Below, in pieces: positions 8,761-52,333 of a DNA stretch of 64,000 nucleotides. This DNA comes from Nitrospirota bacterium. GTDB taxonomy: Bacteria > Nitrospirota > UBA9217. The notes under the pieces are model-generated. The model did not search any database. It was not told where the DNA came from and was given only the letters and a program-made list of their open reading frames with translations. Each line of letters begins with the position of its first letter. Position 1 is the first letter of the stretch. Location of the stretch: NCBI GenBank assembly GCA_963818475.1, contig CAWFSF010000002.1, forward strand, positions 384,001 through 448,000. Reading direction: 5' to 3'. The translations under genes were made by a program, and so were the position numbers.

Positions 8761-9683
8761 TTTATCACCTTGGTAGCGTCCGAGATCAGGTCGATGGGCA
8801 CCTTGATCCCGAGGGCGCCGGCCTCCTTCAGGTTGACGACCAGCTCGACCATCCGCGGGACCTCCACGGGAATGCTTGCCGGCTTTTCCCCTTTGAGCAG
8901 CCGTGCCACCATTCTGCCGGCGGCCGCGCCCTGCTCGGACGCGCTCGGAGCCAGGCTCAGGATCACCCCGTGCTCTGCCGTGCCCCCGATCTGGCTGATC
9001 GTCGGGATCTTCGCCTCCCGCGCCTGCTGCACGATCGCATCAATGGCCTCGTTCGCCGCAGCGCTCACGGATATGAGCACGGCGTCCGCCTTGCCGGCGA
9101 AGACAAGTTTTTTGGCCTCATCAGGCCGCTTGATGGCCATCTTGACCGTCTGGAACCCGTACTGGGACTCAAGTTCACCCAGCTCCTCGGCCTGCTTGAC
9201 CGAATCGGGCTCAAATTCGTTGTAGACCACCGCGATCCTGGTAAAGGGTGTCATCTTTTTCAGGTACTTCAGCAGGCTGGTCATCGGCACCTTGGCGCTG
9301 ATGCCCGTCATGTTCCGTGCCGACACGCCGGCAGCCCCGGGATCGTACACGCCGGCGTACACCATCGGAATGCTCTTGGTCTCCCGGATCATGGCCAGCG
9401 CCGCAGGCGCGCCGTAGGACACGAGCACGTTCACTTCCGCCACCACGAGCTTCCGGGCCGCGTTCGCCCAGGAAAGGGAGTCGGGCGACGGCATCTGGAG
9501 CAGCGTGTCGACCGTGCGAAAATCGAAGCCCTCTTTCCCGAGCGATGCGGCAAAGGCCTTATGCACCTCCTGATAATAGCCCAGGTTGCCGGACATGATC
9601 ACTCCCACGGTCTTGTCCGCGGCGCCGGCAGGCAGAGCGCTCAGAAGAAGCACGACTGCTAGGATCCATCGTATTGCTCTCAT
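8757..9683 (-). CDS. ABC-type substrate-binding protein (ABC_sub_bind family) with no permease or ATPase nearby
   Basis: Signal peptide MRAIRWILAVVLLLSALPAGA. Motifs IPMVYAGVYDP and LLKGEKPASIPVE..LVVNLKEAGALGIKVP. Its stop overlaps the MCP start. Confidence 0.85.
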   Translation of the reverse strand: MRAIRWILAVVLLLSALPAGAADKTVGVIMSGNLGYYQEVHKAFAASLGKEGFDFRTVDTLLQMPSPDSLSWANAARKLVVAEVNVLVSYGAPAALAMIRETKSIPMVYAGVYDPGAAGVSARNMTGISAKVPMTSLLKYLKKMTPFTRIAVVYNEFEPDSVKQAEELGELESQYGFQTVKMAIKRPDEAKKLVFAGKADAVLISVSAAANEAIDAIVQQAREAKIPTISQIGGTAEHGVILSLAPSASEQGAAAGRMVARLLKGEKPASIPVEVPRMVELVVNLKEAGALGIKVPIDLISDATKVIK

Positions 9684-9694
9684 TCTTCCTCCCC

Positions 9695-11628
9695 CTACCA
9701 TTTCAGGGACAGGGTTGCCATCACCGTTTTCACCCGCCCGTCCTGCGTATTGTCTATCTGGTCGTCGTAACTCCGGTACTGGTACCGGACGTCGCTGCTG
9801 AGGTTCCGGGTGAACTGCATCTCGATGCCGCCCGTGTACACGCTGTCGATGACCTTGAGGTCCGAAAGCTCCGCAATGCCGGCAGTGTTGGCGCCGGCGA
9901 GCCGGAAGTTCCCGCGCGAGTAGCTCTTGCTTCCCGATGCAGTGAGGTTCACGCCGTTCACGGGAGCAATGGTCGCGCTCAGCGTTCCGACGTTGGCAAT
10001 ATCATCATAGGGAACGCCGCCGTCGAGCGCAAAAGCGCCGGATCGCGTCCTGCTCGGTCACGGTCTGATCGACCTTGTTCTGGTAATGAGAGAAGCTGGC
10101 CGTGAGCGACGACCGTTTTCCGACCAGGAACGTCATGCTGGCCAGCGCCTGGTCATGCTCGGCGTCGCGGCTCCCGCCCCCAGGGGCGATCCGACTGGTC
10201 CCGCTTCTCATTCACGACGCTGTAGCTGAGCATCGTATTGAACCAGGTCAACGGCATCCAGGTGAGCGATGCACGCGACGTAGCGGACTTGTCCGGATCC
10301 GTGGCGTAGGCCGGATTGTCGACCGAGACCGCGGTGTAGTCGGCCCGGAAGATCATTTTTTTCATGATGCGATAGGTGACGCCGAGCTTGGCCGTGCTCT
10401 TGGTCGTGCTCTCCGGCACCAGCCAGTATGCCGGTGCGCCGGCCGGGGAGGCAGCAGGGTGGAGCCCAGGAGGCCCCGCGTGCGGTCGGTCGTGTCCGTG
10501 CCGTATTCGCCCTTCAAGCGTCAGGCGGTCCGTTGCCCGGTACCGGAGCGACCCGCTCACCACATCGCGTGTGGACGAAATGGAATCGCGGACCTGAACA
10601 GCGCGGCGCCCGCTGCGGTGATGTTGTTTCCGTGGCCGGGTTGGTCACGTCATGGTCATAGTGACGGTACTTGAGCGCGAACAGCACGCTCGTGACGGGC
10701 ATGAAGATGAGATCGCCTGCGGTGTTCGTGAACTTCTCCTTGACGCGCTGTCCTCGTTCTTCTTGTCGCCGTTCGTGTAGGTCCCGGAGAGGACCACCTG
10801 CCCGAATAGGTCGTATGGACCTTCAGCGTGTCCCAGGAGGACTCCAGGTCCGGAACGAGATTGTGCGGGACCGTGAACGTGGTCAGTCCCGAAGTATAAG
10901 TGTCGTTCAGCACCTTTTCCCCGATCGCCTCGAACTTCTTTTCCGTGTGGCTGTAATCGACCTCGATCGGGCCCAGGTGGCTGTTGACGCCGACCCGGAA
11001 CTCCTCGGTGTTCCAGTCGATGTCGCGCGACTTCGAGACCTTGGTCAAGGCCGCCGCTCAGTTCGCGCAGGAACCGCTGCTGGATGCTGCCTTCCCGGTC
11101 GATGGTCCGCACTTCGGCGTAGAGATGGAAGGGGAAATCCGGGGTCTTGAACCGGAGGAACGCCCTGCCAACTGGTTGCTCGATGCCCGTAGAGGTCGAT
11201 CGGGGTTCAGGTCGGTAAAGCTCGGCGACGGCGTGGCCGGATCGTCGAACGCCGAACTGGAAATGGTTCAGATTGTGGAACAGGCTCGCGCGTGTACCCG
11301 TTGAACACCACCACGTCCTTGTAGGCGTAATCAACCTCGCCGAAATAATCCTTGGTGTTCAGAAAGGTCGGATTCGAGCACGAAGCGGTGCGGGAGCGGG
11401 TCCCACTCCAGGTCCAGCGATCCCAATGGGGCCGGACTTGAGATACTCGTACTCTCCTGCTATCGGTGTTGCCGTGTCTCGTTATGCTGCGGTAGCCCAG
11501 GCCGAATCTTGCCCTCAAAGGGCTCGCCGAGCGCGGTCGCTTCTGGCCTGTTCCTCGCTGCCTGCTGCGCAACAGCCGGGGAGGCCCAGAACATCAGGAC
11601 GCTCAATGATCAGGATCAACTTTTTCAT
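9695..11628 (-). CDS. Outer-membrane beta-barrel of a porin-cytochrome complex (MtrB/PioB-like); several frameshifts
   Basis: Start MKKLILII follows an RBS. Fragments are rich in alternating beta-strand patterns. The C-terminus ends in an aromatic residue (ATLSLKW*). It lies directly downstream of a decaheme gene. Confidence 0.7.
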
Positions 11629-11641
11629 GTACGAGCCTCCT

Positions 11642-12653
11642 CTATCGTATGAAGTCTGCCTTTGCCGCTCGGCGAAGGCAGGTCGGAACCATGGATCTGG
11701 GAATGACAGTCGGAGCACCGCGTGTAGAATGCCTGCTTCTGCTCGGTCGTCGTGCTGCCGTCGATCGGGTGCGTCGGATGGCACTGGAGGCAGAGGAACG
11801 GCTCGCGCGCGTTCAGCAGGTTGTTGTTCACCGATCCGTGCGGGGTGTGGCAGGCGCGGCAGTCATCGGTCAGGTCGGCATGCTCATACACAAAGGGCCC
11901 TTCCTTCTCCGCGTGGCACTGCGTGCAGGTCGCCTTCACCGTATCGCGCCGCAGGCTCTTTTCCGCTGCGCTGCCGTGCGGGATCGTGGCAGTCGGTGCA
12001 GAAGACCTTCTTTTCCGGCACCGGGTGATGGTTCGGCAGGATGAAGGCCGCCTTCACTTCCTGGTGGCAGCGTTCGCACATCTCGGCCGTGTCCCGGATG
12101 CTTCACCTTCAGGTTGTGGCCGCCGTGGATCTTGTGGCAGTCGGAGCAGGAAACGTCGGCGATGTTGTGCGATGCCCGCGTTCCAGTTGTGCAGGTTGAA
12201 GGTTGCGTTGGCCGTGTGGCACTTGAGGCAGATGAGCGACTGGGCCTGCGCCGGAAGGTTCTTGATGTCGATGAAGGTCTTGTAGTTGCAGGCCGTCATC
12301 TTGCCCGCCTTGGCGTCGGCCTGCACTCTCTCCGGCGTGATCCCGTCGACGGCAAGGCTGCCCGGCCCGTGGCAGCTTTCGCAGTTCACGATCGGCATGC
12401 CCGATTCGCGCGAGAGCTGGGCGCCCATGGTCGAGAGGTCGAAATCCTTGCGCCGCTGGTCGTGCACATGACAGGCCGCGAGACAGGTGTCCGTGCCGAT
12501 ATAGTCGGCGTCGAGCCGGCCGACGATCAGCTTCTCGTACTCCTTGATCGGCAGGATCGGCCTCGCTTCCTTGAGCGCTGCGCATCCGGCGGCGAAGAAG
12601 ACGCCGATGATCCCGGCTGCCAGCCATTTCCTCCATTTCAGAAATTGTTCCAT
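11642..12653 (-). CDS. DmsE/MtrA-family periplasmic decaheme cytochrome c; frameshifted
   Basis: Across frames: CLAACH, CESCH, CLKCH, CSDCH, CERCH, CTDCH, CTQCH, CRACH, CLQCH, CSDCH. Hallmarks EKEGPFVYEH, CHTPHGS, CHSQIHGSD. RBS AAAGGAGG. Confidence 0.85.
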
Positions 12654-12684
12654 AAAAGAAAACCTCCTTTGTCCTGAGTGTGGG

Positions 12685-14869
12685 TTAGGGCCGTTCTGCT
12701 TCGATGCCGAGCGACACCGTTCGGCAGTAGATACGTTGTTGCCTCGGCACAATAAACAGGCGGCGTACCGCCGGCGCAGAGCGTGTCCAGCGTTGCGCCC
12801 ACCGAATAGTTCATGACATTGTCATCGAGCCAGTCGATGGAGTCATAAATGAGCCGCTTTGTGTACATCCGGTTGTGCACATAAGCCCCGGGATCATGCT
12901 CCAGCAGGTTGAAGTTGAAAGCCGCGCCCATGTTGTTCTGACCGGTGTCGGGAGTGCCTAGAACTGCAACAGCGACATTGGCCGTACAACTGTAAGCCCC
13001 TGCGACCCCTGACAGCGTAAAGGTTGAGCTGCCGCCGGTCTGCCAGTTCCTGACAGGTAGGTTTAATGTCGTCGTACAGTCCGAGGTTATCGCTTGGTTA
13101 TACGTAGTATCGAAACCCGGTGCAATGAAGAAGTAAGGGCTGTAGGGAGCAAAGAAGATCCCGCGAATTGCAAGTTGGTCCTTTAACGCTTCGATGGACT
13201 CGGTAAACTGAGCCTTCTGTTCTCTCACGAGGTCGAGGATAAGCGTCGTGGATGGGCCGTGGCAATTGAAGCAAACCTCGCTTGCGATGCCGGTGATCTG
13301 TCCGATCGAGGTTGTGCTCCGGGAGACCGGCAGGAACAGATGGTTCCCGTTCTTGTTCGGACGGGACATGTGGCAGCCGATGCAGGGACCGTTGGAGCCC
13401 GTATTCACAAAAGGCGGAAGCTTCTGCGTGGCTGCGGTGCCGATCTTATCATGGAGATATTCCGGAATGTTGTTGTAGGGCCGTCCGGGAAATTCGTAGC
13501 CCGTGACCGTGAAGACCTGTCCGCCGGCGGTCAGATAGTGGGAATTGATGAACCCGCTGTTTGCAAAGTTAAACGTGGTGATGGTTCCCACGGACAGCAG
13601 CGCCGGATCGTTCAAGCCTCTTACCGTGTCGCCACTTTCCCTGCCCGTGTGGCAGGCCATGCAGACGTTCGATCCTGCAAGGTCCGGGTAGGCGTGCGAG
13701 GCCTTGGCATAGATCTTGGGGGACGTGCCGTAATCATACTTCGCCGTGATCGCCCCGGGGTTCCTAAGAGCCCCCTTGTTGTCCGTGTGGCAACCGTTGC
13801 ATTTGAGCATCTCGGGTTTCCAGTTGAAAGAAGTAGTAGCACTGGAAAACTGCGAATTGAGGCCGCTGTTGATGTCGCTTGCGAGCTTGGCGTCCCCGGA
13901 CCTAAGCGCATCCGCGTAAGCAGTGTAGCCGGTGGTCGTGTGACAGCGCTGGCAAGCGTTGTATGAGCTTGCGCCCCAGGCATAGTGAGCCCAGGCGCCG
14001 CTGAAATAGCCGGTTCCGGTCGAGTTTAAGTTAAAAGGATTCTTGTCGGCATGCGCCGATTGCGCCCATTCTCTGTTCTGCGTGGGCGGTTTGTGAGGAT
14101 TGTGGCAGTTCACACAGACCTTCTTGTCGCTGTAGTCCGTTCTGTAAATACCCTGCGCATCCCGATAACTCATGGAATAGCCGGTAATGGCCTTGGTGCC
14201 GGAGTTTCCGATGCCAGTCCAGTCACCTGGAGTTGCAAAGTGCGTGTCCGTAATGCTGAACTGGTTGCCGCTTGCACTCAGCTCATCTGTTCCGCCGGGG
14301 TCATGCGCTGCTGGCGCGGTTCCTGTGCCCGTCGTGTCCAGCAACCCATGGCAGGAGGTGCACATGACGAACTGGGCTGAGGCCTGGACCGTGCCGGTGC
14401 CCCAGGTAACGGGAGGCGTGTCGGGAATAACAGAGATGGGCCCCATCCCGCCCGCACCCGCGTGCAGGCTTCCCCCGCCATGGCAGGTTTCGCAGCCGAT
14501 AACCGGTCGCAGGATGCCGGCAGCACCGAGATAGCCCGGGGTGAGCTTGCCGCTGTCCCCGTTCGGGTCATGGCAGGCCACACATTCGACTCCTCCTGCC
14601 TGTACCTGAGCAAACGTCGGACTCCCCACGCTGTACAGGTCACCCGGCGTACTCAGGTTCGCATGCTTGCTCGTCAGCCAGTCGGCGACCATCGCCGTAT
14701 GGCACGTGGCGCACGTGGCCAGTCCGACAGTCGGCGTTGATGCCGTTAGCACGTTTTCTGTTGCCGTGGGGGTATTCTCCTCTGTTGAGGAGCCGCACCC
14801 GGCGAGCAGGGCGGCCGCAGACATCACGGCCAGAAGCAGAAATACCATTCTTCGTTTATGCATATGCAA
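12685..14869 (-). CDS. Outer-surface multiheme lipoprotein cytochrome c (OmcB/OmcC-like, 10 CXXCH)
   Basis: Lipobox LAGC and ten CXXCH motifs. C-terminal GAAFNFNLLEHDPGAYVHN..KRLIYDSIDWLD. Removing one base near 12713 gives the end LGIEAERP*. Confidence 0.88.
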
Positions 14870-14948
14870 TACCCTCCTTCACAAATTGGCAATGTATTTT
14901 TTATCGGGCAGGAAAACGGCACGTACACCGCCCTCCCTGCGTCCGCTC

Positions 14949-16894: not shown

Positions 16895-18904
16895 TTACGA
16901 GTATTGTCTCGTAACTCCTGCTTTTCTGAACGCTCCTTCGATGAGCGACTCCACGTCCAGAACGAGCACAACGCCCCGCTTGTCGCCGAGCTCGGTGGCG
17001 CCGGCGATGCCGGGGATCTCCGCCAGCCGCTTCCCGAGCGGTTTGATCACGATCTCCTGCTGGTCTTTGAGCCCTTCCACCACGATCCCGAGACGGCGCT
17101 CCGCAAGGCCGACAAGAATGACATAGAACGATCCGAACCGCTGCTCCCCGGCCAAATTGAAGGCCCGCGTAAGCCGAAGCAGCGGAACGGTGTCTTCCCG
17201 GATGGCGATGACCTCGCGCGTTTCCACGGTCCGCACCTGGTCCGGTGTGGCCTGCAGGATCTCGAGCACGGCGTTGAGCGGGATGGCGAACACCTGGCCG
17301 GCCGCCTCGACGATCAGCGCCTTGATGATGGCGAGCGTGATCGGGAGCGTCAGCGTGAACCGTGTTCCCACGCCGAGCTCGGTCTCGATGTCGATCATAC
17401 CGGAGAGCCGCGAGACGTTCTTTTTCACGACGTCCATGCCCACGCCGCGGCCGGAGATCTCGGTCACCGTATCGCGGGTGGTGAAGCCCGGCAGGAAGAT
17501 AAGATCGAGAATGTCCTTGCGGTCGATCACCGGATCGAGCCCGTGGTCGCTCTCAAGGATGCCCTTTTCGCACGGCCTTGGCCAGGATCGCTTCGGCCGA
17601 TATGCCGGCGCCGTCGTCCTCGACCGTGATCACCACGTGGTTGCCGCGCGGGAACGCCGTGAGCCTGACGCTGCCCTGCTCCGGCTTCCCGACCTGCCGC
17701 CGCACCTCGGGCGGTTCGATGCCGTGATCGATGGCGTTCCTGATGAGGTGCATCAGCGGGTCCGCAAGGTCTTCGATCATGAGCTTGTCGAGCTCCGTCT
17801 CTTCGCCCTGAAGCTGCAGATCGATCTCCTTGCCCGCATCCTTGGCGTATTTGCGGACCACCGACGACAGGCGCGTAAAGATCTGGCCGATGGGCACCAT
17901 CCGGACCTCGAGGATGCCCTCCTGCAGTTCGTTCAGCTTCCGCTCGAGGCTCTTGTGCGCCTTGTGCAGCTCCACGGAGATGCCGGTATAGCCCTGGAGC
18001 TGCCGCAGTTCCTTCACGATCCTGCCGATGATGTTCTTGGTCAGATGCATCTCGCCGACGGTGTTCATGAGGCTGTCGAGGCGGAAGATGTCGACGCGCA
18101 CGGTATTGCTCACGGATTTGAGCATCGTTGCTTCGGGTTTCGCTTCTTCGGCCTTCGCGCCCTGGCGGTACGCCACCGGCTCGATCGAGACGTTCGGCAG
18201 GGCCAGGGCCGCGGTCAGCGCGGCGCGGTCCTTTGGCGTGCCGAGGACCATGGTAAAACCGATGCCGCTGCCCTGTGCGCCTGCGGTCGGCAGGGTGCAG
18301 ATGATCTCGCCGTTCTTCTTGAGCGGTCTCGTTCAGGGCCTTGATCCCGGCTTCGAAATCAGTGAGCTCGTACGACAACCTTGACCATGAACAGGTTCGT
18401 TCGCTCTCGGATGTTCTCCTTCAGCCGGTATTCCTCGTACTCCGTCAGGACCTGCAGGATCCCCCGGTCGAGATCGATCTGCTCCAGCAGCGACCGGCCC
18501 TCTGCTGCCGAGGGTTTTGCCTTCAGGACCGCGTCAATGCGTTCCATGGCCGGGGTGATGTCATCGCTCGGCTGGCGGGCAGCCACCTGCTGCACCAGCC
18601 GCCCGATGAGCGAAAGCGTCTCGAGCACCACATCCAGGGCCTGCCGGCCCAGAGCGACCTTGCCGAGCCTGAGTTCGTCCAGCAGGAACTCCAGCTTATG
18701 CGTGATGTCCGACGGGGCCTTGAGCCCGTACATCCCGGCCAGGCCCTTGAACGAATGAACGGCGCGGAACAGCGAGTTCAGGACGTCCGGGTCGGTGCGG
18801 CCCGCGGCCAGGGCGTTCTCGAGCGACAGCAGCGCCTGGTTGGCCGTCTCCAGGATGTCCTCCGCCTCTGCCAGAAAATCTTTTATGGGCCGGTCTGAAG
18901 TCAC
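16895..18904 (-). CDS. cheA: Chemotaxis histidine kinase CheA; several frameshifts
   Basis: Hpt FRAVHSFKGLAG, dimerisation TVRVDIFRLDSLMNTVGE, HLIRNAIDHGIE, EDDGAGI, ISGRGVGMDVV, and a C-terminal CheW domain. Confidence 0.92.
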
Positions 18905-18998
18905 GCTATCGCTCCCGATCAAATGCGGATCAAATGTGGAATGCACGCATATGTCCTACAGGCTTTCTCGCTCCGAACTCCGAACTCCAGGCTCCGCA

Positions 18999-19373
18999 CT
19001 ACGTACCACTCCCCAGCACCTTCCCTACCGCAGCCATGAGGTCGGCCCTGGTAAACGGCTTCACCACATAGCCGGCCGCGCCGAGCGCCAGGCCGCGCTT
19101 CACGTCCTCCTCGGTCTTTTCCGTGCTGACGATGATCAGCGGGATGTCCCGGTAGGCGGGGTTGGACTTCACAAAGCCGATCAGTTCAAGTCCGTTGATG
19201 TCGGGCATGTTGATGTCGGTGATGATGAGGTCGAAGCGGCGCGTCGGGAGCGTTTTCAGGGCCTCGAATCCGTTCGCCGCCTCGACAACGTAGAATCCGC
19301 CGGCCTCCTCGAGCGACACGCGGATCATCGAGCGGATGGCCTTGGAATCCTCCACGATGAGAATGTTCTTCAT
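18999..19373 (-). CDS. cheY: CheY-like single-domain response regulator
   Basis: MKNILIVEDS, IITDINMPDINGLE, VSTE, YVVKPF. Confidence 0.9.
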   Translation of the reverse strand: MKNILIVEDSKAIRSMIRVSLEEAGGFYVVEAANGFEALKTLPTRRFDLIITDINMPDINGLELIGFVKSNPAYRDIPLIIVSTEKTEEDVKRGLALGAAGYVVKPFTRADLMAAVGKVLGSGT

Positions 19374-20582
19374 CTTCTCTCCTTCTGCAGTTCCGCGATC
19401 CGCTTTTCGAGCAGCGCCTTTTCGAGCGCCATTCCCGCCTGGTTCATGAAGATCTCGAGCGTGTCGACGCCCCTGATCGGACTGCCGTTCGGGCAGGTTG
19501 TCGCCGTAGACGACCAGGACCACCTTGCTGTCGACGACCAGGGGAATGGCAAGCACCGGATCGGGCTGCGCGCCGCCGAGCTCGTTGGCAAGATAATTAT
19601 TGCATTCGTTCGATTCGAGCGGCCCCAGATAGCTGCGCCGGTTCTCGATGACGGTCAGGAACAGGGACGGTTTGTTGAGCGGGATCTTGATGTTGCGCAC
19701 GACCTGGTCGGCCGAGCGCCCCTTCAGCTCGATGCCGAACTGGCCGAGCCCCCGCACCTCGTCCTTCTTGACCATGAACAGAACAGCGCGGTTCACGACC
19801 TCGCTGGCATAGCGCAGGATCAGCAGCGTGACTTCGGAAGTCGCCGTGGGAAACCGAAGCTCATCGAACATGGACCTGAGCGTCGAGATCTCTCGCTGCG
19901 GCGCTTCGGTCTCGATGCGGGTGCGGAATTCTTCTTTGGCGGGTTCGTAGCTGACATGCGCCGGAGCAGCAGGCGGCGGCAGGGGCCGCAGCCGGCGGCT
20001 GGCGGCGTTGGCGGCGCTGCAGGGGCCGGGGCTGCTTTGGACGCCGGGGAAGGCGCCGATTTCCGGCTTTCGTGGCGCCGCTCGTCGAGGATCCGGGTGC
20101 CCTCCATCAGCAGATACTCGGCGCTGATGCCGCGACTTGAGGAGGAACTCCTGGGTGTCGATCTCGATCTTGTCCTTCGGCGCGATCTCGCCGAGCTCAA
20201 AATTGAAAAATCCTTCTTCCCAGGCCAGCAGGTCGTAAATGATCTCCTCGATCTGCTTGCGCACCACGGTCTGGAGGGTCTCCGGCGGGACCAGCCCCAT
20301 CTCGACAAGGATCATGCCGAGCGGGGTATCGGTCTCCTTTTTCTGGCGCGCCAGCGCCTGCGCAAGGCCCGGTGCGGTCAGCATGCCCTGCGACACCAGG
20401 ATGTTGCCCAGCGAGTCGCGGATGCCGTCACTGGCGGCCTGGATGACCTGGCCGTTCTTGAACACAACCATCCCCATTCCCTTGCGGCTTCGCACAACAA
20501 GGGTGCCGGTCTTTTTACTTAGACTGATGATCTGGAAAATATCCGGTAAGGCAAGATCTTCCAGCCTGCCGACAAGGCTCAT
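19370..20582 (-). CDS. DUF4388 (PATAN-like) protein with a C-terminal GAF-like domain; frameshifted
   Basis: MSLVGRLEDLALPDIFQIISLSKKTGTL, LLAWEEGFFNF. The true C-terminus (EIFMNQAGMALEKALLEKRI) is in ORF 19370-19591. Confidence 0.8.
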
Positions 20583-20610
20583 GCATTCTCCGTAGTACGC
20601 AGTTCGCCAA

Positions 20611-20638
20611 ATTATAGCAGTTTAGACAATAAATGCAA
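20611..20638 (-). promoter_or_regulatory. sigma70-type promoter for the chemosensory gene string
   Basis: TTGCAT-16-TATAAT with an extended -10 TG, about 30 bp upstream of the first gene. Confidence 0.6.
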
Positions 20639-25318: not shown

Positions 25319-25354
25319 AAACCTCCTGCTAAGAATTAGTTTATGACGGAACTA
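25319..25354 (-). terminator. Probable terminator downstream of the 2009-aa ORF
   Basis: Long imperfect inverted repeat beginning AAACCTCCTGCT..GAATTAGTT and pairing with AACTAATTC..GCAGGAGGTTT (to about 25374), followed by a T-rich tract on the minus strand. Confidence 0.5.
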
Positions 25355-25449
25355 ATTCAAGAGGCAGGAGGTTTATATGAACTGTATTGACATCAGACCT
25401 GAGCAGTTTCTTCACTGCAGAAACCGCCATTATTACCACCGCCTACGCC

Positions 25450-28400
25450 TTAGTTGCAGGACGAAAGCAGCGCCAGAATGAAGATAGATGCCAGCAATTT
25501 TAGCGCGAATGACCGGCGTCCTGCCTGAACAGGCCGTGGAAGTTCTATAAATCCCGAGGACATCTTTCGCTTCATGATGAGCGCCAGCAACACCAATTCG
25601 ATCACCATAAGGAATGTCCACGGATATTCTATTGCATAAATAAGTGGTGTCAGAATTAATCTCGTCATCATTCTCAAGATATCATGCTGCCTGATAAAAG
25701 CTGCGACCGGCGGTGAGTGCCGGTAATAGGTACTTACGAAGAGCCTTCCGGGACCATTCGTCAGGAGGTATTTATCCCTGAAATCGCGAAGCACTTTGAC
25801 ATGAGGATCGAGATACGAGCCGTATGCCGCAGTCGCAATGAAGCAACCGCCGCCCCCGCCTCCGCCGCCGGCACCACTGTTCCCGGTCCCGCCTCCGTCT
25901 CCAGATGCCAAGCCTGTGCCGGTCAGCGCGACCGAGATGGCGTTTTTGTCCGGATCGGTCGATGCGATGTTCAGAGTTGCCGACCTTGTTCCTTCAGCAG
26001 AGGGGGTGAATCTCAGAAAGATGCTGCAGCTGCTGCCGGCACTTTTGCTGCTGGTGCAGTAATTGGAGGAAATCGAAAATTCCGAGGAATTGTCTCCTGC
26101 TATAGTGAAATTGTTCAGCAGTAATGAATCATTTCCATTATTCGTTATTGTGAGCGTCCGGGCACCGGGCACCAAGCCGATATACGCAGTTCCAAAATCG
26201 AGCGAGGATGCGCTTAAATCGGCCACCGGCTGCTGCCCGGTGCCGCTCAGCGCAATATTCATCGTCGGCCTGTTGGGGTCATTCGTGGTCAACGCGATGG
26301 TTGCTCCCCTCGCAAATGCGCCTTGCGGTTCGAAGGTCACCGTAAACGTGCAGTTCTGGTCGGGATTGATCGTGGCCGAAGACCCGCAGGTGCCTCCTAT
26401 GTTGAAATCTCCCGGGTTCGTTCCTGTTACTGCGCTGGAAATGTTCAAAGGAGCTGTCCAGACATTCTTTACTGTTACCGTTTGCAAAGACGAAAGGCTT
26501 CCCCGCTTAACAGTGCCGAAATTCAGGAACGCGGGACTGAGCGAAATCTCGGGCTCCGGTGCCGGTGCGCTGACTGGCGTCAGTGTCGGGGTCTGCAGAA
26601 TAAAGCCGGCAGATCCATAATTCCCGCCTACGATAACAAACGTATTATTGCCGAATGCTCCACTGTTAATCGAGCCGGTCCCGCCTGATATCCTCAGGGT
26701 CCAGGTCCGGGCGTCATTCGAGGACAACAGGGTGCTACCGCCGAAGACAAGATAGGTATTGTTTCCGAAAGCAGCTCCGTAGAGAGAGCTCGAAGTTCCC
26801 GATGACCGGCTGGTCCAGAATTCCGTGCCGCTCGATGTATACAATGTTCCCAAATAGCTGGTAGCAACCGTTACCCCGTTCCCGAAGGCAAGCGCATCGA
26901 GGCTGTAGCTGCTGTTCGTGGGCCTGGAGTTCCAGGTCGCGCCGTCCGGGGAGGTCCAGGCAGTGCTTTGAGAGCCGGAACCGATAAAGACACTGTTGAC
27001 GAAAGTGACATCGTACAATGTTGGAGTTGCTGCATGGAGACTCCAGGATGTGCCGTCTGGGGACGTAGCGGTCAGGTCGTAACCAGTGGCGACAAATGTT
27101 CCGTTCCCGTAAGCAACATGGTCCAAGTCCGAGGCAGTGCCGGAGTTCTGGGCAGTCCACGTCGAACCGTTGAGTGAGGTTATTATTGCGCCGGAGTCAC
27201 CGACAGCAACATATGTTCCGTTTCCATATGCCACCGAACTAAGCAGCCGGGTTGTCCCAGTCATCCGGGAAGTCCAGTTCACTCCGTCAGAAGAAGTCAC
27301 AATGGTGCCGTTGTTTCCTACAGCAACAAATCCATTATTCCCGTAGGTCACGCCGTACAGTTGATGCTCGTAGGAATCGGGGACCCATGACGTCCAGGTG
27401 ATGCCGTTCGGAGAAGTAAGGATTGCACCGTAATTGCTGATCACGGCGAATTCGTTATTGATAAACCGTACAGCCTTGGGGGTGATCGGCCCGCCGAAAG
27501 ACCGCGCAGTCCAGACAGCGCCGTCCGTGGAGGTGAGAAGCGTGTTGTTCGTTCCGACAGCGACGAACACGTTGTTCCCGAAGGCCACGCCGATCAGGTT
27601 TTCCGCAGTGTTGGAAGTCTGCAACGTCCAGTCCGTTCCTTCATTATTAGTGTTTTGATTCGGCGAGGTGTTTACGGACCTGTAGATCGTGCCGCGAGTG
27701 CCGACGGCCACGAAGGCATTGTTCCCATAGGCAACTCCGGAAAACTGATCCGGGTCAATAAACAACCGCTGTATTACGCCCGCGGCACTGTACGTCCATA
27801 TTTTCCCCCCATAACCCACATAGTAAGCTCCGGCAACCACATATGTGTTGCTGTTCGGGCTGTACGCTACTCCAGTCAGTTTATAATCGATAGTCGAGTT
27901 GACCGTTGTCCAGTTTTCACCGTCCGTTGATTTCGCGATGCCATAGCCGACTGCTACGATAGCGGGGACTCCACCGCTGCCAATGGTGACATCCGACCCG
28001 GTGGCCAGGCTGTAAAGACTGATCGCCACCTGAGTGCCCGCAGTCCAGTTCGTTCCAGTCGTTGAAGTATAAGTTTCTCCGTTCTCGTTGACGCCGACGA
28101 ATTTCCCATTGAAATACATCACACTATTGAAACCATATTGAGGGCTGGCAAAAGTATCTTCAATCCACTCGTGCTTGTCAGCTGATGTCAGGACGGCATT
28201 GACCTGCGTTGTGAATGGCACATTCGTCCGACCGAATGCCGCATACATCCCATTGCCGTAGGCAATGTCGGCAGTAGACACGGGAAACATTCTTGGTTTC
28301 CACGTGTACAGGGGGTCCGTCAGAGACGGCGCGGACCTCACGGCCTGCAACTGCTTGCTCTCCTTTTGATCTGCCGGACCTGCTGTCGTACTGGTGCCAG

Positions 28401-31400
28401 GCGAGCTGCAGCCGCTGACGAAGACGGATATGAAACAAAGAATCGAGATAAGACGCATTGCCGGAACCTGTTCCATCTGGCAATTGAAGCTGCCTCCGGC
28501 GACAACGCCTGACCACCGGCTTTCGGATACTCTTCTCAAATTCGCAGCAGTCATCATAACGGCCATACCAAAACAAAGCATCAGGAACAGATTCGGATAT
28601 GCCAAAGCAAGAACTACCGGTGTGAGCAGCATCCGTGTTATTGCCCGAAGTACCTCGCTCTGCCTGATGAAGTCGGCTATCGGCGGCGAGTGCCGGTAAT
28701 AGGTACTTACGAAGAGCCTTCCGGGACCATTCGTCAGGAGGTATTTATCCCTGAAATCGCGAAGCACTTTAACATGAGGATCGAGATAAGAGCCGTATGC
28801 AGCCGTGGCGATGAAGCAACCGCCGCCCCCGCCTCCGCCCCCGCCGCCTGCACCGGAATTGCCTGTGTCGCCGGTGCCCGAACCGACGCCAGTGCCCGTA
28901 ACAGTAACCGCAACGGTTGAATTGTCAGGATCATCTGATGATACTGAAATCGTGGCGGACTTCGCGCCTGATGATGCCGGAGCAAAGGTGATCGTCTTCA
29001 TGCAGCTCCCCGTCGTAATGGGGCTCGAGCAGCTCGTACTGCTCAGACCGAACTCCGAAGCGTTCGGCCCGCTGATGCTGATCCCGGTGACCGTCAAGGG
29101 GGCCGGCGTGCCGCCGGTGTTGTTGATTACAAGATAGCCCGCGGAAGAAGACCCGACATTTACGCTCCCTAGATTGCTCGGGCTGGCTGTAACCACGATA
29201 TGGGGCTGAACGCTGTTGCCGTTGAGCGGGATGTTTATGGTCGGGTGATTGGGATCATTAGTCGTGAGCACGAGGCTGGCAACGCGACTGCCCGCTCCCG
29301 CCGGAATAAAGGTCACCTCCAGGCCGCAGCTCCCGTCGGGTGCGACCGTGAAGGAGCCTGAGCTGCTGCACGTGCCCGCCGCGACGCTGAAGTCCCCGGT
29401 ATTCGTCCCCGTGACAGAGGTGGCAACGTTGAGATCTCCGGTCCAGGTATTCGTGATGGTCAGGGTCTGAGCGGTTGAAGAGCTCCCGCGGTTCACGCTG
29501 CCGAAACTGAAGTAGGTTTTGTCATAGGTTATCTCCGGTTCGACGGGAGGCGCAGCAACCGTCGCAAGGGGTGCGGACTGAAATATCTGACCAAGATCTC
29601 CGACAGCGACGAAGCTGTTGTTGCCGAAGGCAATACCCTGCAGCAGCGTGATTGATTCGACCGGGTTCGTGTTCCACGTGCGGCCGTCATGAGAACTGAA
29701 CACCTGATCGCTTCCGCCGATGGCGGCGAACGTATTGTTGCCGAAGGCCACGCTGAACAAATCGGAGCTTTGGTAAACTGCCATTCGCTGTGTCCAGTGC
29801 ACGGAACCGCTCGAGGTGTAAACATTTTTGTCGTCCCCGACCGTCACCATTGCGCCGTTACCGAAGGCCGCTGAGTACAGATAGGGGACATTGGCCGTGA
29901 TTTCGTTTCGCTTTGTCCAGACTGCACCGTCGGCAGAGGTGTAAATGCCGGAGTATTCACCCACGGCCGTGAAAATACCATTGTTGAAAGCAACACCCTT
30001 CAGATCCTGGATCAGCCCGACAGTCTGCGGAATCCAGCTGGAACCATCAGCAGACGTATAGACCACGCCATTTGTCCCGTTCGTACCCACTGCCACGAAC
30101 ATGTTATTCCCGAAGGCCACGCTTTCAAGGACATTGGGTGCAGAGGCCTCCGCCACTGACCAGGTAATTCCGTCCGAGGAGGTTGTGATAGCTCGCCCAA
30201 CTGCTACATATTTTCCGTTGCCATAGGTCAGCGCATACAGGTCCTGGGTAGTGTTCGAAACGCGTCCGCCCCAGGTTGCTCCGTCGGTCGACGTAAGAAT
30301 CGTGCCGTACGTCCCGACGGCAACGAACAGATTGTTCAGGTAAGCGACATCTTTGATATTGCGATACTGAGAACCCAGGCTGACCGTGGCATTGTAGCCG
30401 GCAAAGACAGGATTCCAGGCTGTGCCCGTGGAGCTTGACATCATGCCGGCCCCCAAGGCGTACAGCGTGTTGTTCATTATGGCCAGACGCGTCGGCTGCT
30501 CATCGAGGCTATAGTTCCTTGCGGTCCAGGTGGTGCCGTTCGGCGAGGTATAATAGCGCCCCGGTCCGTTCGGCGCCGCATTGCTGTATTCGCTTACCAC
30601 GAAGAGACCATTGATATACTCTATGTCCCAGAGGATGCCGGCCCCATTGATAACCGTTGTAGATTGGACTTTAGTCCAGGTGAGTCCGTCCGTCGAAGTT
30701 GAGTAAACGCCGCCATCACCGACAGCAACGAACTTGTTGCTGCCGTTGTATGCGATACTGTAGAAATTCGGCGACATTCCTACATCCGATGGGACCTCAC
30801 GGGCTGTCCAGACGGACCCTGTCGGCGAGGTCACAATGTTGTCGTCGGATACCCCCATAAACTGGCCGTTCACGAAGATGACTTTTTTTATCGGAAGCGG
30901 ATAGAAACCCGCGTCTATGGCTGTCCAGTTGATCCCGTCTGTTGATCGAATAACGTATCCGTCCAGGGTTGTCGCAACAAAAACTCCATTGCCATACTCG
31001 ACATCCAGCAGCATATCCAGGGGATAATTGTAGGGAGGACTTAACGGGAGCGTCGGCGTTGTCCAGGTAATAAGATCGGTCGATGTCATTATCCGGGCGC
31101 CGCCGCTCCCGCCGGCAGCTACCGCAATTCCATTCCCGATCGCGACTCCGCTCAGGGCATAACCGCCCTGGGGCCGATGGGTCCAGGCAATCCCGTCGGT
31201 TGAGGTAAGGATCGCGTCCGCTCCGCTCTTGCTGCCGACGGCAACATAACGATAAACTCCGTTTACGGTGCCGCTCGCCGCAGACTGAAGGCTCGTCAAG
31301 GGAAAGCTTCGCGGGTACCAGGTGTTCAAAGGACCGGTGCCCGTGGTGTAGGTCATGATCGGGGAGGCAAGCGCCTTCTCCCTGCGGTCCCCTGCTGGCG

Positions 31401-31479
31401 TCTGGTTTTCCAATTTGCTGCAGCCGGAAATAATAAACAGCAAGGATGCGAGGAAGCAAAATAAAACTTTTCTTATCAT
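25450..31479 (-). CDS. Large surface lipoprotein of two tandem modules (beta-propeller-like repeats, Ig-like choice-of-anchor D domains, CFI-box-CTERM)
   Basis: N-terminal lipobox ISGC. Many (Y/F)GNN.FVAVG..G.I.TS.DG..W repeats. FGSV/TNDP Ig-like domains. [29 protein letters not shown] occurs twice. An internal signal peptide with lipobox VSGC sits at about aa 1008-1024. Confidence 0.85.
25708..28839. repeat. 159-bp near-identical direct repeat (25708-25866 and 28681-28839) encoding the CFI-box core
   Basis: Both copies contain GAGTGCCGGTAATAGGTACTTACGAAGAGCCTTCCGGGACCATTCGTCAGGAGGTATTTATCCCTGAAATCGCGAAGCACTTT, with only a few substitutions elsewhere. Confidence 0.9.
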
Positions 31480-32009: not shown

Positions 32010-34219
<2,210 letters not shown>

Positions 34220-34292
34220 AGGCTCCTATCTTCTTATTCTGTACTTCTCACTTCTTGTTTCTTGCTTCTTGTTCATACTCTTGCTCCCCGCC

Positions 34293-44254: not shown

Positions 44255-46231
44255 TCATCCTTTGATCTCCACCGTAGCCCCTTGCTTTACGAGCAGCTCC
44301 TTCAGGTTCGGGAACTTGTCCTTCATGTGCGGGATGTGCATGGCCTGCATGAACTCCTTCTCGAAGGCCGGGTCCGTGGCGATCTCGACGAATTCGACCC
44401 AGCGGGCCCGTTCGTTCGCTTCCCGCCGCTTGTCCCGGTTCAGGAGCGCTATGCGCGAACCGTCGCCGGCAGCGTTGCCCACGGCGTAGACCATGTCGAT
44501 GGGGCAGTCCGGGAACATGCCGAGCGTGAGCGAAGCCACTTTGTCGATGTGGCTCCCGAAGGCGCCTGCCAGTATCACGCGGTCGAGCTTGGTGATGCCG
44601 AGCCGCTTCATCATCAGTTTTGCGCCTGCATAGAGCGCTCCTTTGGCTAGCTGGAGCGCGCGCACGTCGCCCTGGGTGATGGTGATGTCGTGGCCGATGG
44701 ATGTCTCCGCAGCCCAGGCAAGCACGTACTCCGGTTTACCGTCCACGTCCTTCCGTACTCGATTGGTGCCGAGGTCCAGGACGAACCTGCCGCTTTTATC
44801 AATGATGCCGGCCTTGAACATTTCGGCCACCACGCCGATGATGCCGGAGCCGCAGAGGCCCTTGGCATTCACCTTTTCGATATGCGTGTGCCAGTCCGCC
44901 TTGCCGATGACCTTGTACCGGGGCTCCTTCGTGGCGGGGTCGATCTCGACGGTCTCGATGGCGCCCGGTGCTGCGCGCATGCCGAACTTGATCTGGGCGC
45001 CTTCGAAGGCCGGGCCGGTTGCGCAGGACGTGGAGCAGACCTTGTTCCGGTTGCCCATGAGCAGCTCGCCGTTCGTGCCGATGTCGATGATCAGGACCAT
45101 CTCGTCCTGGTTGTAGGGTTCTTCCGCGATCAGCACGCCCACGTTGTCGGCGCCCACGAAGCCCGCTTCGATCGGCAGCACGTGAATGTAGGAACCTGGA
45201 TTGATCCGGAGGCCCAGGTCGCGCGCCTTGATATCGAGCGAGTTCTGGACCGCAGGGATGAAGGGCGACCGGCCGATGTATTCGGGGTTCAGGCCCAGGA
45301 AGATGTGGTGCATGGCCGTATTGAATACGATCGTCAGGTCGTCGATCATGAACCCGGGGTTCAAGTCGTCCTTTTTTATGTCCACGGAAACGCGCTCGAT
45401 GATCTCGTTCAGGCCCTGGATGATCGCCTTCTGCATGGTGTCCAGGCCGCCCGGATTGCTCATGGCAAAGGTGATGCGCGACATCACGTCCTCGCCGTAG
45501 GGCACCTGGGGGTTCATCATGGATTCGGTGTTCACGACCTTGCCCGTGCTCAGGTCCGTCAAATAGCCCACGCAGGTCGTCGTGCCGACGTCCACGGCAA
45601 GGCCGTAGCTCGCCTCGACAAAGCCCGGCTCCACCTTGATGATCTCCCTGTCCATCCAGACCGTGACCGTTGCCTTCCACGCGTCCTTTCTGAGAACGTC
45701 CTGGAGGTCTTTGAGCACCAGGTAATCGAACGTAAGCCCTGTAAGCTTGTAGTTGTCCTCAAGGTATTTCAGCACCCGTTCCCAGTCGCCCGTGGTCATA
45801 TCGTGGAGTGACGGTTGTGCGAGTTCGACATTGTACTTCTTTACCGCCGGGTCGAGCTTGATCGTGAGCTCTTTCGCTGCCTTCCTGACGACCTGTTTGC
45901 CCGCGCGCGAACGTTCGGGTACGAAGACCTTGACGTCGCCGTGGATCTCGGCCGTACACGACAGCCTGATGCCCGGCCCGTCCTCGGGCTTGATGTGCTT
46001 TTTCTCCGCTTCGGAGAGCGGGGAGAGATGGGCCATGCCCGATTCGATATTGTCCTTTTCGAAATAGCCTTCTTCGATCCTGACCTTGCACTTGCCGCAG
46101 ACCTTTTTGTTTCCGCAGAGCGCTTCGATGTCAACACCCAGGGACTGGGCCGCTTCAAGGATGGTCTTGCCGTCCTCTACTTCGCCGCGGCTGCCCGAGG
46201 GCTGGAATATCACTTTGTGTTTCTTGAGCAT
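44255..46231 (-). CDS. ATP-dependent reductive activator of corrinoid proteins (RACo/RamA, ASKHA domain with N-terminal 2Fe-2S)
   Basis: LCGNKKVCGKC..RLSC, GLAVDVGTTT, NPQ..YGEDVMSRI, GFVGAD, IDIGTNGE, ATGPAFEG, LAGAFG, VGNAAG. Confidence 0.93.
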   Translation of the reverse strand: MLKKHKVIFQPSGSRGEVEDGKTILEAAQSLGVDIEALCGNKKVCGKCKVRIEEGYFEKDNIESGMAHLSPLSEAEKKHIKPEDGPGIRLSCTAEIHGDVKVFVPERSRAGKQVVRKAAKELTIKLDPAVKKYNVELAQPSLHDMTTGDWERVLKYLEDNYKLTGLTFDYLVLKDLQDVLRKDAWKATVTVWMDREIIKVEPGFVEASYGLAVDVGTTTCVGYLTDLSTGKVVNTESMMNPQVPYGEDVMSRITFAMSNPGGLDTMQKAIIQGLNEIIERVSVDIKKDDLNPGFMIDDLTIVFNTAMHHIFLGLNPEYIGRSPFIPAVQNSLDIKARDLGLRINPGSYIHVLPIEAGFVGADNVGVLIAEEPYNQDEMVLIIDIGTNGELLMGNRNKVCSTSCATGPAFEGAQIKFGMRAAPGAIETVEIDPATKEPRYKVIGKADWHTHIEKVNAKGLCGSGIIGVVAEMFKAGIIDKSGRFVLDLGTNRVRKDVDGKPEYVLAWAAETSIGHDITITQGDVRALQLAKGALYAGAKLMMKRLGITKLDRVILAGAFGSHIDKVASLTLGMFPDCPIDMVYAVGNAAGDGSRIALLNRDKRREANERARWVEFVEIATDPAFEKEFMQAMHIPHMKDKFPNLKELLVKQGATVEIKG

Positions 46232-46267
46232 GATTCCTCCTGAACTACTCGAATCTAAGAGCTATAT

Positions 46268-46396
46268 CCACCACGGAGACACGGAGGCACGGAGGAAAAC
46301 AGATTACTAGTGCTTCATTAAGTTCGTTAGTTGCTTAATCCAAAGACACGCCTGATCTCAGTATCGATTTCTCCGTGTCTCCGTGACTCCGTGGTT
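46268..46396. repeat. 9-bp-periodic inverted-repeat element (CACGGAG type)
   Basis: ACCACGGAGACACGGAGGCACGGAG ... CTCCGTGTCTCCGTGACTCCGTGGT. Confidence 0.85.
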
Positions 46397-46401
46397 AAAA
46401 A

Positions 46402-47040
46402 TTATCCTGCAATCGTTTCTTTCCTCCCATACGGACAAATATTGATACACAGCCCGCAGTTGGGCTTGCCGTCAGTTGCCCGCTTGGTCGATTTGTGGCT
46501 TCTGCAGTCGCTGAGCTTCACCAGTTCAACAAAAGGCGAGGACCGGGACCATTCCCGACCCGTGATCGCATGCGAAGGACAGTAGGTCATGCAGAGCGTG
46601 CAATCGCCGCACAAGCTGTGTTCCATGGGCGCATCCGGCCGGAAACGGGCATCGGTCAGGACCGTGACAAGCGACAGGCGCGGACCGTGGTCGATGTTGA
46701 TAAGAAGCCCGTTCTTCCCGATCCAGCCCAACCCGGCGGACGTGGCCGCCATCTTGTGATTGAACAGGGAGTAGAGCTTCGAGATGCACGTGCCCTTCCT
46801 GCGGTCCGAGTCCGGCGGGATGGCAAGGGTGCGATGCCCCCGGGCCTTCAGGAACCGGACCGCCCGCTTCTCAAGCTTCGCGAGCAGGCTGAGGGTGTCT
46901 TCATTCAGCCTCCGGTCCACACCGATGGACACCGCCCGGGCCAGATGGGCGATCTCGCCGCTCAGGTACCCGTCGAGGCCTGCGAACCCCACGACCGTTG
47001 CGCCGTGGTCCAGCAGTTCTTTCCTGAGCGAGGTCTTCAT
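46402..47040 (-). CDS. QueG/reductive-dehalogenase-like 4Fe-4S protein
   Basis: NHKMAATSAGLGWIGKNGLLI..HGPRL, CGDCTLCMTYCP, CGLCINICPYG. Confidence 0.85.
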   Translation of the reverse strand: MKTSLRKELLDHGATVVGFAGLDGYLSGEIAHLARAVSIGVDRRLNEDTLSLLAKLEKRAVRFLKARGHRTLAIPPDSDRRKGTCISKLYSLFNHKMAATSAGLGWIGKNGLLINIDHGPRLSLVTVLTDARFRPDAPMEHSLCGDCTLCMTYCPSHAITGREWSRSSPFVELVKLSDCRSHKSTKRATDGKPNCGLCINICPYGRKETIAG

Positions 47041-47729
47041 TTCGCTTTCTTGGCTTCCACCTCATCCTTCATCTTTTTGAGCGACTCGATCATGTTGATG
47101 GCGTCCTTCAACGCGTTGGTCGCGTCCTTGGCGTAGCCGTCGGCGCCGTACTTGTCAGCCACGTCCTGGGACACCGGGGCGCCGCCGATCATGATCTTGA
47201 CATGCGGGTTCTTGGCCCGGAGATCGTCGATGACCTTCTTCATGCCGGTCATGGTCGTGGTCATCATGGCCGAAAGGCAGACGAGGTCGGAATCGGTCCG
47301 GAGCTGCTCGGCGACGAATTTGTCCAGCGGCACATCCCGGCCCAGATCGTAGACCGTGAAGCCGGCCACGTCGAACATCATCTTCACGATGTTCTTGCCG
47401 ATATCGTGCACGTCGCCTTCCACGGTCCCGATAACGACCGATCCCTTCACGCCCAGGTCCAGCTGCTTCACGTGGGGCTTCAGGATGTCCAGGCCCGCGT
47501 AGAGCGCGTCTGCGCACATGAGCAGCTCGGGCACGAAGTACTCCTGCGCCTCGAACATCTTTCCCACTTCCACCATGCCGGAGACGAGTCCGTTGAAGAT
47601 GGCGTCGTTCGCTTCCATGCCCACGTCCAGCGCCTCCTGCGACGCTTCCTTGGACGTGTCTTCGTCGTACTGGATCACCGCGTTCCGCAGTTTTGCCAGG
47701 AGCTCTTTCTTTTTTTCTTCCGTAACCAT
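47037..47729 (-). CDS. Methyltransferase cognate corrinoid protein (MtaC/MtbC-like)
   Basis: B12 motif GDVHDIGKNIV, DLGRDVP, LSAMMTTT, GGAPV; N-terminal cap EYFVPELLM. Confidence 0.95.
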   Translation of the reverse strand: MVTEEKKKELLAKLRNAVIQYDEDTSKEASQEALDVGMEANDAIFNGLVSGMVEVGKMFEAQEYFVPELLMCADALYAGLDILKPHVKQLDLGVKGSVVIGTVEGDVHDIGKNIVKMMFDVAGFTVYDLGRDVPLDKFVAEQLRTDSDLVCLSAMMTTTMTGMKKVIDDLRAKNPHVKIMIGGAPVSQDVADKYGADGYAKDATNALKDAINMIESLKKMKDEVEAKKAK

Positions 47730-47733
47730 AGGG

Positions 47734-48753: not shown

Positions 48754-48808
48754 TATTATGGAACCTCCTTGAAATACAGTATCGGAATCAAATGGACCTA
48801 AAGCTATT

Positions 48809-48940
48809 ACCACGGAGACACGGAGGCACGGAGAAAGGCAATTAACTTTATGCAAGAACAGAAAATAATTTTCTGAGATTCTTAAAGCAAAATACGTGTT
48901 GGCCTTAACGTCTTCTCCGTGTCTCCGTGCCTCCGTGGTG
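48809..48940. repeat. 9-bp-periodic inverted-repeat element (CACGGAG type)
   Basis: ACCACGGAGACACGGAGGCACGGAGAA ... TTCTCCGTGTCTCCGTGCCTCCGTGGT. Confidence 0.85.
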
Positions 48941-48948
48941 AAAAGGCT

Positions 48949-49896: not shown

Positions 49897-49955
49897 CGTT
49901 GTCCTCTTTTCTTGTCTCTATCTGGTGGAACCGCTGGAATGTCTAAATCTATATC

Positions 49956-50170
49956 CACCACGGAGGCACGGAGTCACGGAGAAATGCTGGCTTTAAACTT
50001 TCACGGCTGTCATTGCGAGGAGCGTTTTATGCGACGCGGCAATCTCGAACTTGTTGTTTTGTTGAACTACGAGATTGCTTCGCTTCGCTCGCAAAGACGG
50101 CTAAAGGGCTTTTCAACAACCTGCTGGATCTGCAGTCCGTGATTTTGCTCTCCTCCGTGTCTCCGTGGTT
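49956..50170. repeat. 9-bp-periodic inverted-repeat element (CACGGAG type) with a nested stem-loop repeat at 50009-50098
   Basis: CACGGAGGCACGGAGTCACGGAG ... CTCCGTGTCTCCGTGG. Inner GTCATTGCGAGGAGCG..GCGACGCGGCAATCTC ... GAGATTGCTTCGCTTCGCTCGCAAAGAC. Confidence 0.85.
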
Positions 50171-52319: not shown

Positions 52320-52333
52320 AACAAGGGATAGTT

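Follow-up and report, generated by a model that had tools for sequence, protein, structure and literature searches.

Two CFI-box lipoprotein modules in a single open reading frame: a candidate membrane-processed polyprotein from a Nitrospirota bacterium

Results

Architecture of P0001

We analyzed a 64,000-nucleotide (nt) stretch of a Nitrospirota genome assembly (GCA_963818475.1, contig CAWFSF010000002.1, positions 384,001 to 448,000 of the forward strand; hereafter the window, with positions counted from its first letter). Its minus strand carries an open reading frame (ORF), P0001, of 2009 amino acids (aa; 25450..31479), which encodes two lipoprotein modules in a single frame, each with its own CFI-box-CTERM domain. 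The frame runs from 31479 to 25450 without an internal stop, and the window contains no N. A preliminary description, made from the letters alone and giving no strand, had read one stop-free frame as lipobox, module, CFI-box, transmembrane (TM) helix, loop, lipobox, a second such set, and a terminal lipobox. We recovered exactly this order on the minus strand; the first CFI-box, described as lying near aa 888, was placed at aa 888 to 956, and the internal lipobox signal at aa 1008 to 1024 as described, with its cysteine at Cys1024. The reading that we lean toward is that P0001 arose when adjacent lipoprotein genes fused naturally and that it acts as a membrane-processed polyprotein, with cleavage predicted from the architecture.

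All the features of P0001 lie on the minus strand. Signal 1 (aa 1 to 20, 31420..31479) was recognized by its lipobox pattern, which ends in Cys20. Module 1 starts with DUF6242-like and BNR-like repeats (aa 21 to 642, 29554..31419), assigned by Pfam (orthologs, P0330, P0207, and P0278), and continues with two choice-of-anchor D domains (ASH-like, immunoglobulin [Ig] type) and a Gly-rich linker (aa 643 to 887, 28819..29553), assigned by NCBIfam and Pfam. The internal CFI-box 1 (aa 888 to 956, 28612..28818) is followed by TM anchor 1, which ends in a basic pair (aa 957 to 985, 28525..28611; hydropathy, charge, and structural model), and by a predicted cytoplasmic loop 1 (aa 986 to 1007, 28459..28524). 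This loop contains Trp989, at the point where orthologs stop, and Met1002; together with Met1008, the latter is a possible internal start. Signal 2 (aa 1008 to 1024, 28408..28458) aligns to the N-terminal lipobox of the stand-alone orthologs. Module 2 (aa 1025 to 1878, 25846..28407; orthologs P0360 and P0361) again consists of repeats, two choice-of-anchor D domains, and a Gly-rich linker, and it leads into CFI-box 2 (aa 1879 to 1947, 25639..25845) and TM anchor 2 with its basic residues (aa 1948 to 1972, 25564..25638; hydropathy).

Domain searches were in line with this layout. The CFI-box-CTERM model NF041770 (cutoff, 40 bits) matched the two boxes with 107.9 and 105.4 bits, and both boxes resemble those of other CFI-box-CTERM proteins in score, in the expected Gly-rich linker before the cysteine, and in the TM helix and basic residues behind the box. 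NCBIfam identified four choice-of-anchor D stretches, two per module, after the glycine/tryptophan-rich repeats, and the Pfam scan of the whole protein likewise returned ASH-like Ig domains and DUF6242-like repeats. The repeats are inferred to form beta-propellers; from domain content, surface binding or a scaffold role would be our guess at the function of the modules. NCBIfam scans of P0001 and 15 relatives contained no match to MYXO-CTERM, and the NCBIfam and Pfam scans of P0001 itself contained no outer-membrane barrel.

What sets P0001 apart is where its signals and boxes lie. Each of the three lipobox cysteines, at aa 20 (ISGC), 1024 (VSGC), and 2008 (LSSC), is preceded by a basic stretch and a hydrophobic helix. 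When we required a basic stretch, a hydrophobic helix, and a canonical lipobox, the pattern occurred in 2 of 3198 forty-codon tiles in the six frames of the window and in all three P0001 signals, which is well above chance. Signal peptidase II signals are expected at the N terminus, but signal 2 lies inside the protein and signal 3 at its C terminus. Unlike the usual C-terminal CFI-box, box 1 is internal, 1122 aa from the C terminus, and box 2 is trailed by an additional lipobox helix, with 131 aa to the C terminus in all; by comparison, the tail is at most 125 aa long in 345 of 378 other CFI-boxes. Among 62 tails of 108 to 149 aa, a second helix behind the anchor was found once, in P0001 itself.

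In the predicted structural model of the junction, a helical box passes into a long helix across the anchor; the loop behind it is disordered, and the signal forms a helix of its own. The CFI-box is modeled as entirely helical (predicted local distance difference test [pLDDT] score, 87 to 96). The Gly-Cys-Phe start of the box raised the question of Hint/intein domains, which are self-cleaving and have an all-beta fold. We rejected self-cleavage of this type, given the all-helical box and a Pfam scan with no Hint family. Searches for a solved relative of the CFI-box gave 0 matches by sequence, none by Foldseek at an E value of ≤0.001, and a best Z score of 5.1 by VIA-align, blanks that do not amount to a new fold.

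The 3′ end of the frame

The second joint resembles the first but leads to no passenger. Loop 2 (aa 1973 to 1987, 25519..25563), predicted to be cytoplasmic, runs beyond the ortholog stop point in the alignment, and signal 3 (aa 1988 to 2009, 25450..25518) consists of a basic pair, a hydrophobic helix, the lipobox pattern with Cys2008, an asparagine, and the stop. Behind this stop lie 18 in-frame codons (25393..25449), Gly/Asn rich like a lipoprotein tether, and then a second stop; they are a possible relic of a third module, and their codon score was uninformative. A strong, long hairpin followed by a U-rich run comes next (25319..25374; −28.1 kcal/mol, z score of −6.15, with 0 of 200 shuffles as stable). 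The hairpin is terminator-like, was not flagged by the consensus scan, and is possibly a terminator or the scar of a lost third module. An intact third module downstream was rejected, as only the 18 codons and the hairpin separate the ORF from an aminotransferase gene. A promoter and terminator scan of the window was uninformative (10 promoter-like sites versus 5.5 in shuffles).

The preliminary description had left the terminal lipobox as either the stub of a lost third module or a terminal lipid anchor. We consider a relic of a lost third lipoprotein module more likely than an anchor, because the action of Lgt and LspA there would free only Cys-Asn.

Recurrence of the joint in other CFI-box proteins

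We then looked at how often other CFI-box proteins continue beyond the box. In the unselected protein searches, 12 of 256 other CFI-box proteins extended at least 150 aa past it, and in a search targeted at the barrel family described below, 17 of 102 box proteins ran on. In GTDB genomes, 2 of 84 boxes (78 loci) continued beyond the box, in a sample made up of the best 80 of at least 606 confirmed stretches; a further 4 of the 80 stopped GTDB boxes, one of them doubtful, are one stop codon short of the fused layout. A heuristic requiring basic residues, a hydrophobic helix, and a cleavage motif was passed by 28 of the 29 long tails (≥150 aa). In the 29th, P0002, the signal lies outside the scanned window and the tail repeats the protein's own N terminus. 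Besides P0001, three proteins carry two boxes (P0002, P0122, and P0240).

The passengers behind these joints fall into eight kinds, grouped by eye and with Pfam, and all eight are led by a signal peptide or lipobox, compared with 20 of 38 ordinary downstream genes scored with the same heuristic. Eight of eight would arise by chance with a probability of about 0.006 (0.53^8). The preliminary description had named the absence of lipoboxes downstream of the box in CFI-box homologs as a finding that would count against it; such lipoboxes occur in P0017, P0053, P0067, P0129, and P0302. The signals in 24 others are of the signal peptidase I (SPase I) type, so that the joints mostly use SPase I-type signals rather than lipoboxes. 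Fused and split forms of the same pair also exist. A DsbC_N lipoprotein is encoded separately in L058 and fused in P0017, P0053, and P0302, with the cleavage motif kept, and L063 has the barrel in a gene of its own, which overlaps the CFI-box gene and whose product is 72% identical to the fused P0272, with the same cleavage motif. These comparisons support a recurrent joint composed of CFI-box, TM helix, basic loop, and signal peptide. The earlier proposal of a chaining joint stands as far as its recurrence in relatives is concerned, and it is weakened for the P0001 pair itself, which is not conserved, and for lipoboxes as the usual signal.

We also inspected the genes next to CFI-box genes for a recurrent sorting protease, the putative enzyme of CFI-box processing. 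The scan covered the 133 nearest neighbors and not the 103 second ones, and its listed Pfam matches included one exosortase and no rhomboid or CPBP protein. Small secreted proteins or lipoproteins are encoded directly upstream of some CFI-box genes and form two lineage-specific families, mostly in Geobacterales-type genomes (family one: L004, L005, L008, L015, L020, L025, L032, L064, and L078; family two: L014, L017, L027, L033, L035, and L058).

A barrel family behind the same joint

A search with P0223 led to a protein family whose anchor is linked by a few basic residues to a signal of the SPase I type. It has 21 members (L021, L055, P0201, P0223, P0256, P0258-P0268, P0271-P0274, and P0276), with L063 as the overlapping-gene form, and the members are 28 to 92% identical (median, 44%). 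Their signals have small residues at −3/−1. The fold predicted for the passenger is a 12-strand barrel resembling FapF and the COG4313 channel (E values of 1e-11 and 2e-8). The TraB model NF033763 matched five of the six members scanned, with 18 to 48 bits against a cutoff of 700; the best match (model positions 6 to 292, E value of 6e-13, 48 bits) is weak, the matches cover the barrel half only, and the passengers lack OmpA. The passenger is TraB-like, not TraB.

An outer-membrane barrel tied to an inner-membrane helix cannot reach its own membrane. Delivery of the barrel would thus require a cut from the inner-membrane anchor, and this is the strongest argument for processing at the joint. 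As the divergence among the 21 members shows, such a joint can be retained over long evolutionary distances, and it is possible that the CFI-box and barrel proteins represent a TraA/TraB-like pair outside the myxobacteria.

Relatives and origin of the two modules

The two modules of P0001 are 39 to 42% identical to each other. Module 1 is 48 to 50% identical to its orthologs P0330, P0207, and P0278, the last of which is the closest named relative and is labeled Nitrospirota, and module 2 is 65 to 67% identical to P0360 and P0361. Since each module groups with a different stand-alone subfamily, we rejected a recent tandem duplication; by this grouping the modules are old paralogs from two subfamilies. 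The boxes tell a different story at the DNA level: box 1 and box 2 are 92% identical over 184 nt and share 27 consecutive identical codons. The box DNA is far more alike than the modules, which suggests gene conversion between the boxes. P0122 likewise suggests conversion: its two CFI-boxes are near-identical, although the passengers that precede them are unrelated.

The codon of Trp989 (28515-28513) corresponds to tail position 102, within the range in which the orthologs stop. Loss of a stop codon would therefore be the simplest origin, and the fusion probably arose in this way.

Discussion

Proposed processing and its alternatives

In the scheme suggested by the lipoboxes, hydropathy, and charge of P0001, Sec would export module 1 via signal 1, and Cys20 would be lipidated. 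The CFI-box helix would halt transfer and keep the basic loop in the cytoplasm, and signal 2 would restart export, now of module 2. Lgt would then lipidate Cys1024 and LspA would cut before it, freeing module 2 as an ordinary lipoprotein and leaving the spent signal 2 on the anchor of module 1, with two lipoproteins of approximately 100 kDa each as the outcome. The second joint would repeat this scheme for a passenger since lost. Across the proteins that carry such a joint, separation is most likely carried out by signal peptidase I or Lgt/LspA. Stop loss or a frameshift could fuse tightly coupled genes in this way, and such fusions would survive only where an export signal opens the next gene, since the two original products are then recovered through topology and cleavage. 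In one lineage, the joint has been reduced to a few basic residues and become fixed, and it would deliver a TraB-like outer-membrane barrel.

Several observations weigh against this interpretation or narrow it. All six of the closest relatives carrying a CFI-box (P0330, P0207, P0278, P0360, P0361, and the partial P0362) consist of one module and end 101 to 121 aa past the box. The preliminary description had held that relatives with a stop codon between the modules would speak for two ordinary tandem genes, and to that extent the closest relatives side with two genes. P0001 is one sequence on one contig, and protein searches, one of them limited to lengths of 553 to 1763 aa and to the best 8000 candidates, found no fused ortholog. 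Because all six relatives stop after the anchor, we regard the chain as a local, lineage-specific fusion and not as a conserved polyprotein. As for the joint in general, none of 17 new box proteins from a further ortholog search extends past the box, and 17 of the 29 long tails stem from the search aimed at the barrel family. The coding score of loop 2 is poor (−0.37); that of loop 1, a point in favor of the chain, is coding-like (−0.05 versus an ORF median of −0.02), in a test that is weak for both. Met1002 or Met1008 could start module 2 separately, though their ribosome-binding sites are weak or far, and the window contains at least nine frameshifts (three in MCP genes, two in cheA, one in a DUF4388 gene, and three in ftsK). 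Finally, 7 of 17 plasmid CFI-box matches are annotated as cold-shock domain proteins, so that the label "sorting domain" may not hold for every CFI-box member. The CFI-box is present in an archaeal plasmid gene as well; H5-H9 and H16 are among these plasmid matches.

The best of the alternatives, which we nonetheless think unlikely, is a near-neutral natural stop loss. Module 2 would be made mainly from Met1008 or Met1002, the readthrough tail on module 1 would be trimmed or tolerated, and the locus would function as two ordinary genes. In keeping with this, the start methionine of the stand-alone orthologs aligns with Met1008, Trp989 falls at their stop position, no relative among those found shows the P0001 fusion, and P0002, P0017, P0053, and P0129 likewise retain a methionine ahead of the second signal. 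However, the frame is open, and each ribosome making module 1 proceeds into module 2; GGAGG sits 16 nt upstream of Met1002, and the site at Met1008 is weak. Moreover, 15 of the 21 barrel-family members have no methionine in the loop, so an internal start cannot be general.

It is improbable, in our judgment, that P0001 is a real but uncut protein, a polytopic inner-membrane protein whose two large periplasmic repeat/Ig regions are held by helices 1 to 3 and the final hairpin. The known substrates of Lgt and LspA carry their signals at the N terminus, the literature that we searched contains no paper on an internal lipobox, and the terminal lipobox has no passenger, all of which would fit an uncut protein. 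This is countered by the homologous position, which keeps its cleavage motif in fused and split forms, and by the barrel family, whose passenger could not get to the outer membrane while attached to an inner-membrane helix.

An assembly error, in which two (or three) tandem lipoprotein genes were joined by a miscalled base, is on a rough judgment similarly improbable. The protein was seen in a single copy on one 850-kb contig, the orthologs all terminate at the joint point, and one of the frameshifts in the window does join two genes (the DUF4388 gene and a response regulator). At joint 2, 28 single-base removals in the loop would restore a normal stop to module 2, but explaining this joint away would leave the third signal dependent on one poorly placed methionine. 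At joint 1, where we removed a base or inserted an A at each of 84 positions, a stop that ends module 1 ahead of module 2 results from only 10 of 168 single indels and 13 of 252 substitutions, and no other frame offers an alternative ending of the kind seen in the frameshift fusion at 19002-20621. We rejected a methylation-type miscall at Trp989, since the alternative hexamer is not depleted (TGATCA versus TGGTCA, 42 versus 35) and no systematic miscall is seen. With the genes from 20.9 to 31.5 kb intact, the same joint in many independent assemblies, and two lipobox-ended joints that would demand two separate errors, we consider this explanation unlikely.

Beyond the processed fusion at this locus, we put forward a broader model more tentatively. 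The anchor, basic loop, and internal signal could together act as a portable joint for polyproteins of Nitrospirota, Desulfobacterota, and other groups, cut by Lgt/LspA and SPase I inside a polytopic precursor, with near-identical boxes letting recombination add, swap, or drop modules; the adhesin-barrel form could then be a single-gene TraA/TraB-like cell-contact system outside the myxobacteria.

Relation to known systems

Viruses routinely make polyproteins that signal peptidase processes, whereas bacteria rarely do so. The envelope polyproteins of flaviviruses and hepaciviruses link successive exported proteins through a stop-transfer helix, a short basic loop, and a signal helix, and the host signal peptidase separates these proteins. 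These anchor-signal hairpins share their layout with the joint described here; they are viral and act in eukaryotes, and we claim no homology. Among bacteria, FbcH, the cytochrome b-c1 precursor of Bradyrhizobium japonicum, is said to yield two envelope proteins from one gene through an internal signal cut by signal peptidase. P0001 similarly has an internal signal sequence within a single ORF. It differs from what is reported of FbcH, a single family of respiratory subunits with an SPase I-type signal, in that its exported upstream part has a C-terminal anchor and its signal is a lipobox. In Haloferax, an internal tripartite ArtA substrate is reportedly still processed when its tag is not C-terminal, as the title of Abdul Halim 2017 has it; that substrate is archaeal, the tag is different, and the title implies no second exported module.

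The closest precedent is MXAN_5598 of Myxococcus xanthus, a TraA/TraB-like adhesin with an internal MYXO-CTERM tag followed by an outer-membrane barrel and an OmpA domain, described as a possible gene fusion in the accessible portion of its report (PMC11980579). There, as here, an adhesin-like region and an internal C-terminal sorting tag precede a second exported protein, and the barrel family resembles MXAN_5598 in having a TraB-like barrel behind the tag. The tags differ (MYXO-CTERM versus CFI-box-CTERM), as do the passengers, which are lipoproteins in P0001 and a barrel with OmpA in MXAN_5598. The same portion of the report proposes processing of the N-terminal part of MXAN_5598 and describes no second signal peptide or cleavage. 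Unlike in MXAN_5598 as portrayed there, the joint described here precedes passengers of at least eight types and can occur twice in one chain.

Our literature search, which covered titles, the starts of abstracts, and few subscription papers, returned nothing on the CFI-box, an internal lipobox, or a bacterial lipoprotein polyprotein. The terms CFI, lipobox, and polyprotein are absent from the accessible main text of 10.1101/2023.06.07.544157, and none of five related terms occurs in the accessible part of PMC3237569. Internal sorting tags and precursors that yield two proteins from one gene are already known; the literature searched contained no reusable anchor-loop-signal joint that has internal lipoboxes.

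Should the joint be cut as proposed, the lipobox on which Lgt and LspA act would lie 1000 residues into a precursor anchored in the membrane. Through such a joint, a coupled gene pair could turn in a simple way into a polyprotein with a fixed 1:1 ratio, and predictors that look only at the N terminus miss the lipoproteins and outer-membrane barrels behind it. Because the barrel can arrive in the outer membrane only after its release, the joint also makes the CFI-box-CTERM domain, which is unstudied, accessible to testing.

Other genes in the window

Several minus-strand genes in GC-rich stretches of the window are broken, likely by indel errors: ftsK (32010-34225) is spread over four frames, cheA (16898-18955) lies in three, and two MCP genes (1558-10001) are split. 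At 19002-20621 (minus strand), a frameshift takes the DUF4388 gene into the response regulator, and the natural ending is present in another frame. An MCP with a C-terminal phosphonate-binding-protein domain is encoded in one frame at 3690-6587 (minus strand); we considered this MCP-PhnD ORF as a second artifactual fusion and rejected the idea, as it reads as an apparently natural fusion. Multiheme cytochromes, one of them MtrC/MtrF-like, are encoded at 11628-14878 (minus strand). A corrinoid methyl-transfer locus at 44258-53515 (minus strand) comprises RACo, a B12-binding protein, MtrH, two URO-D-family proteins, and MTHFR. At 58465-61336, a direct tandem repeat of approximately 1.45 kb (99.5% identity) carries in each copy a 426-codon transposase-like ORF with a helix-turn-helix motif.

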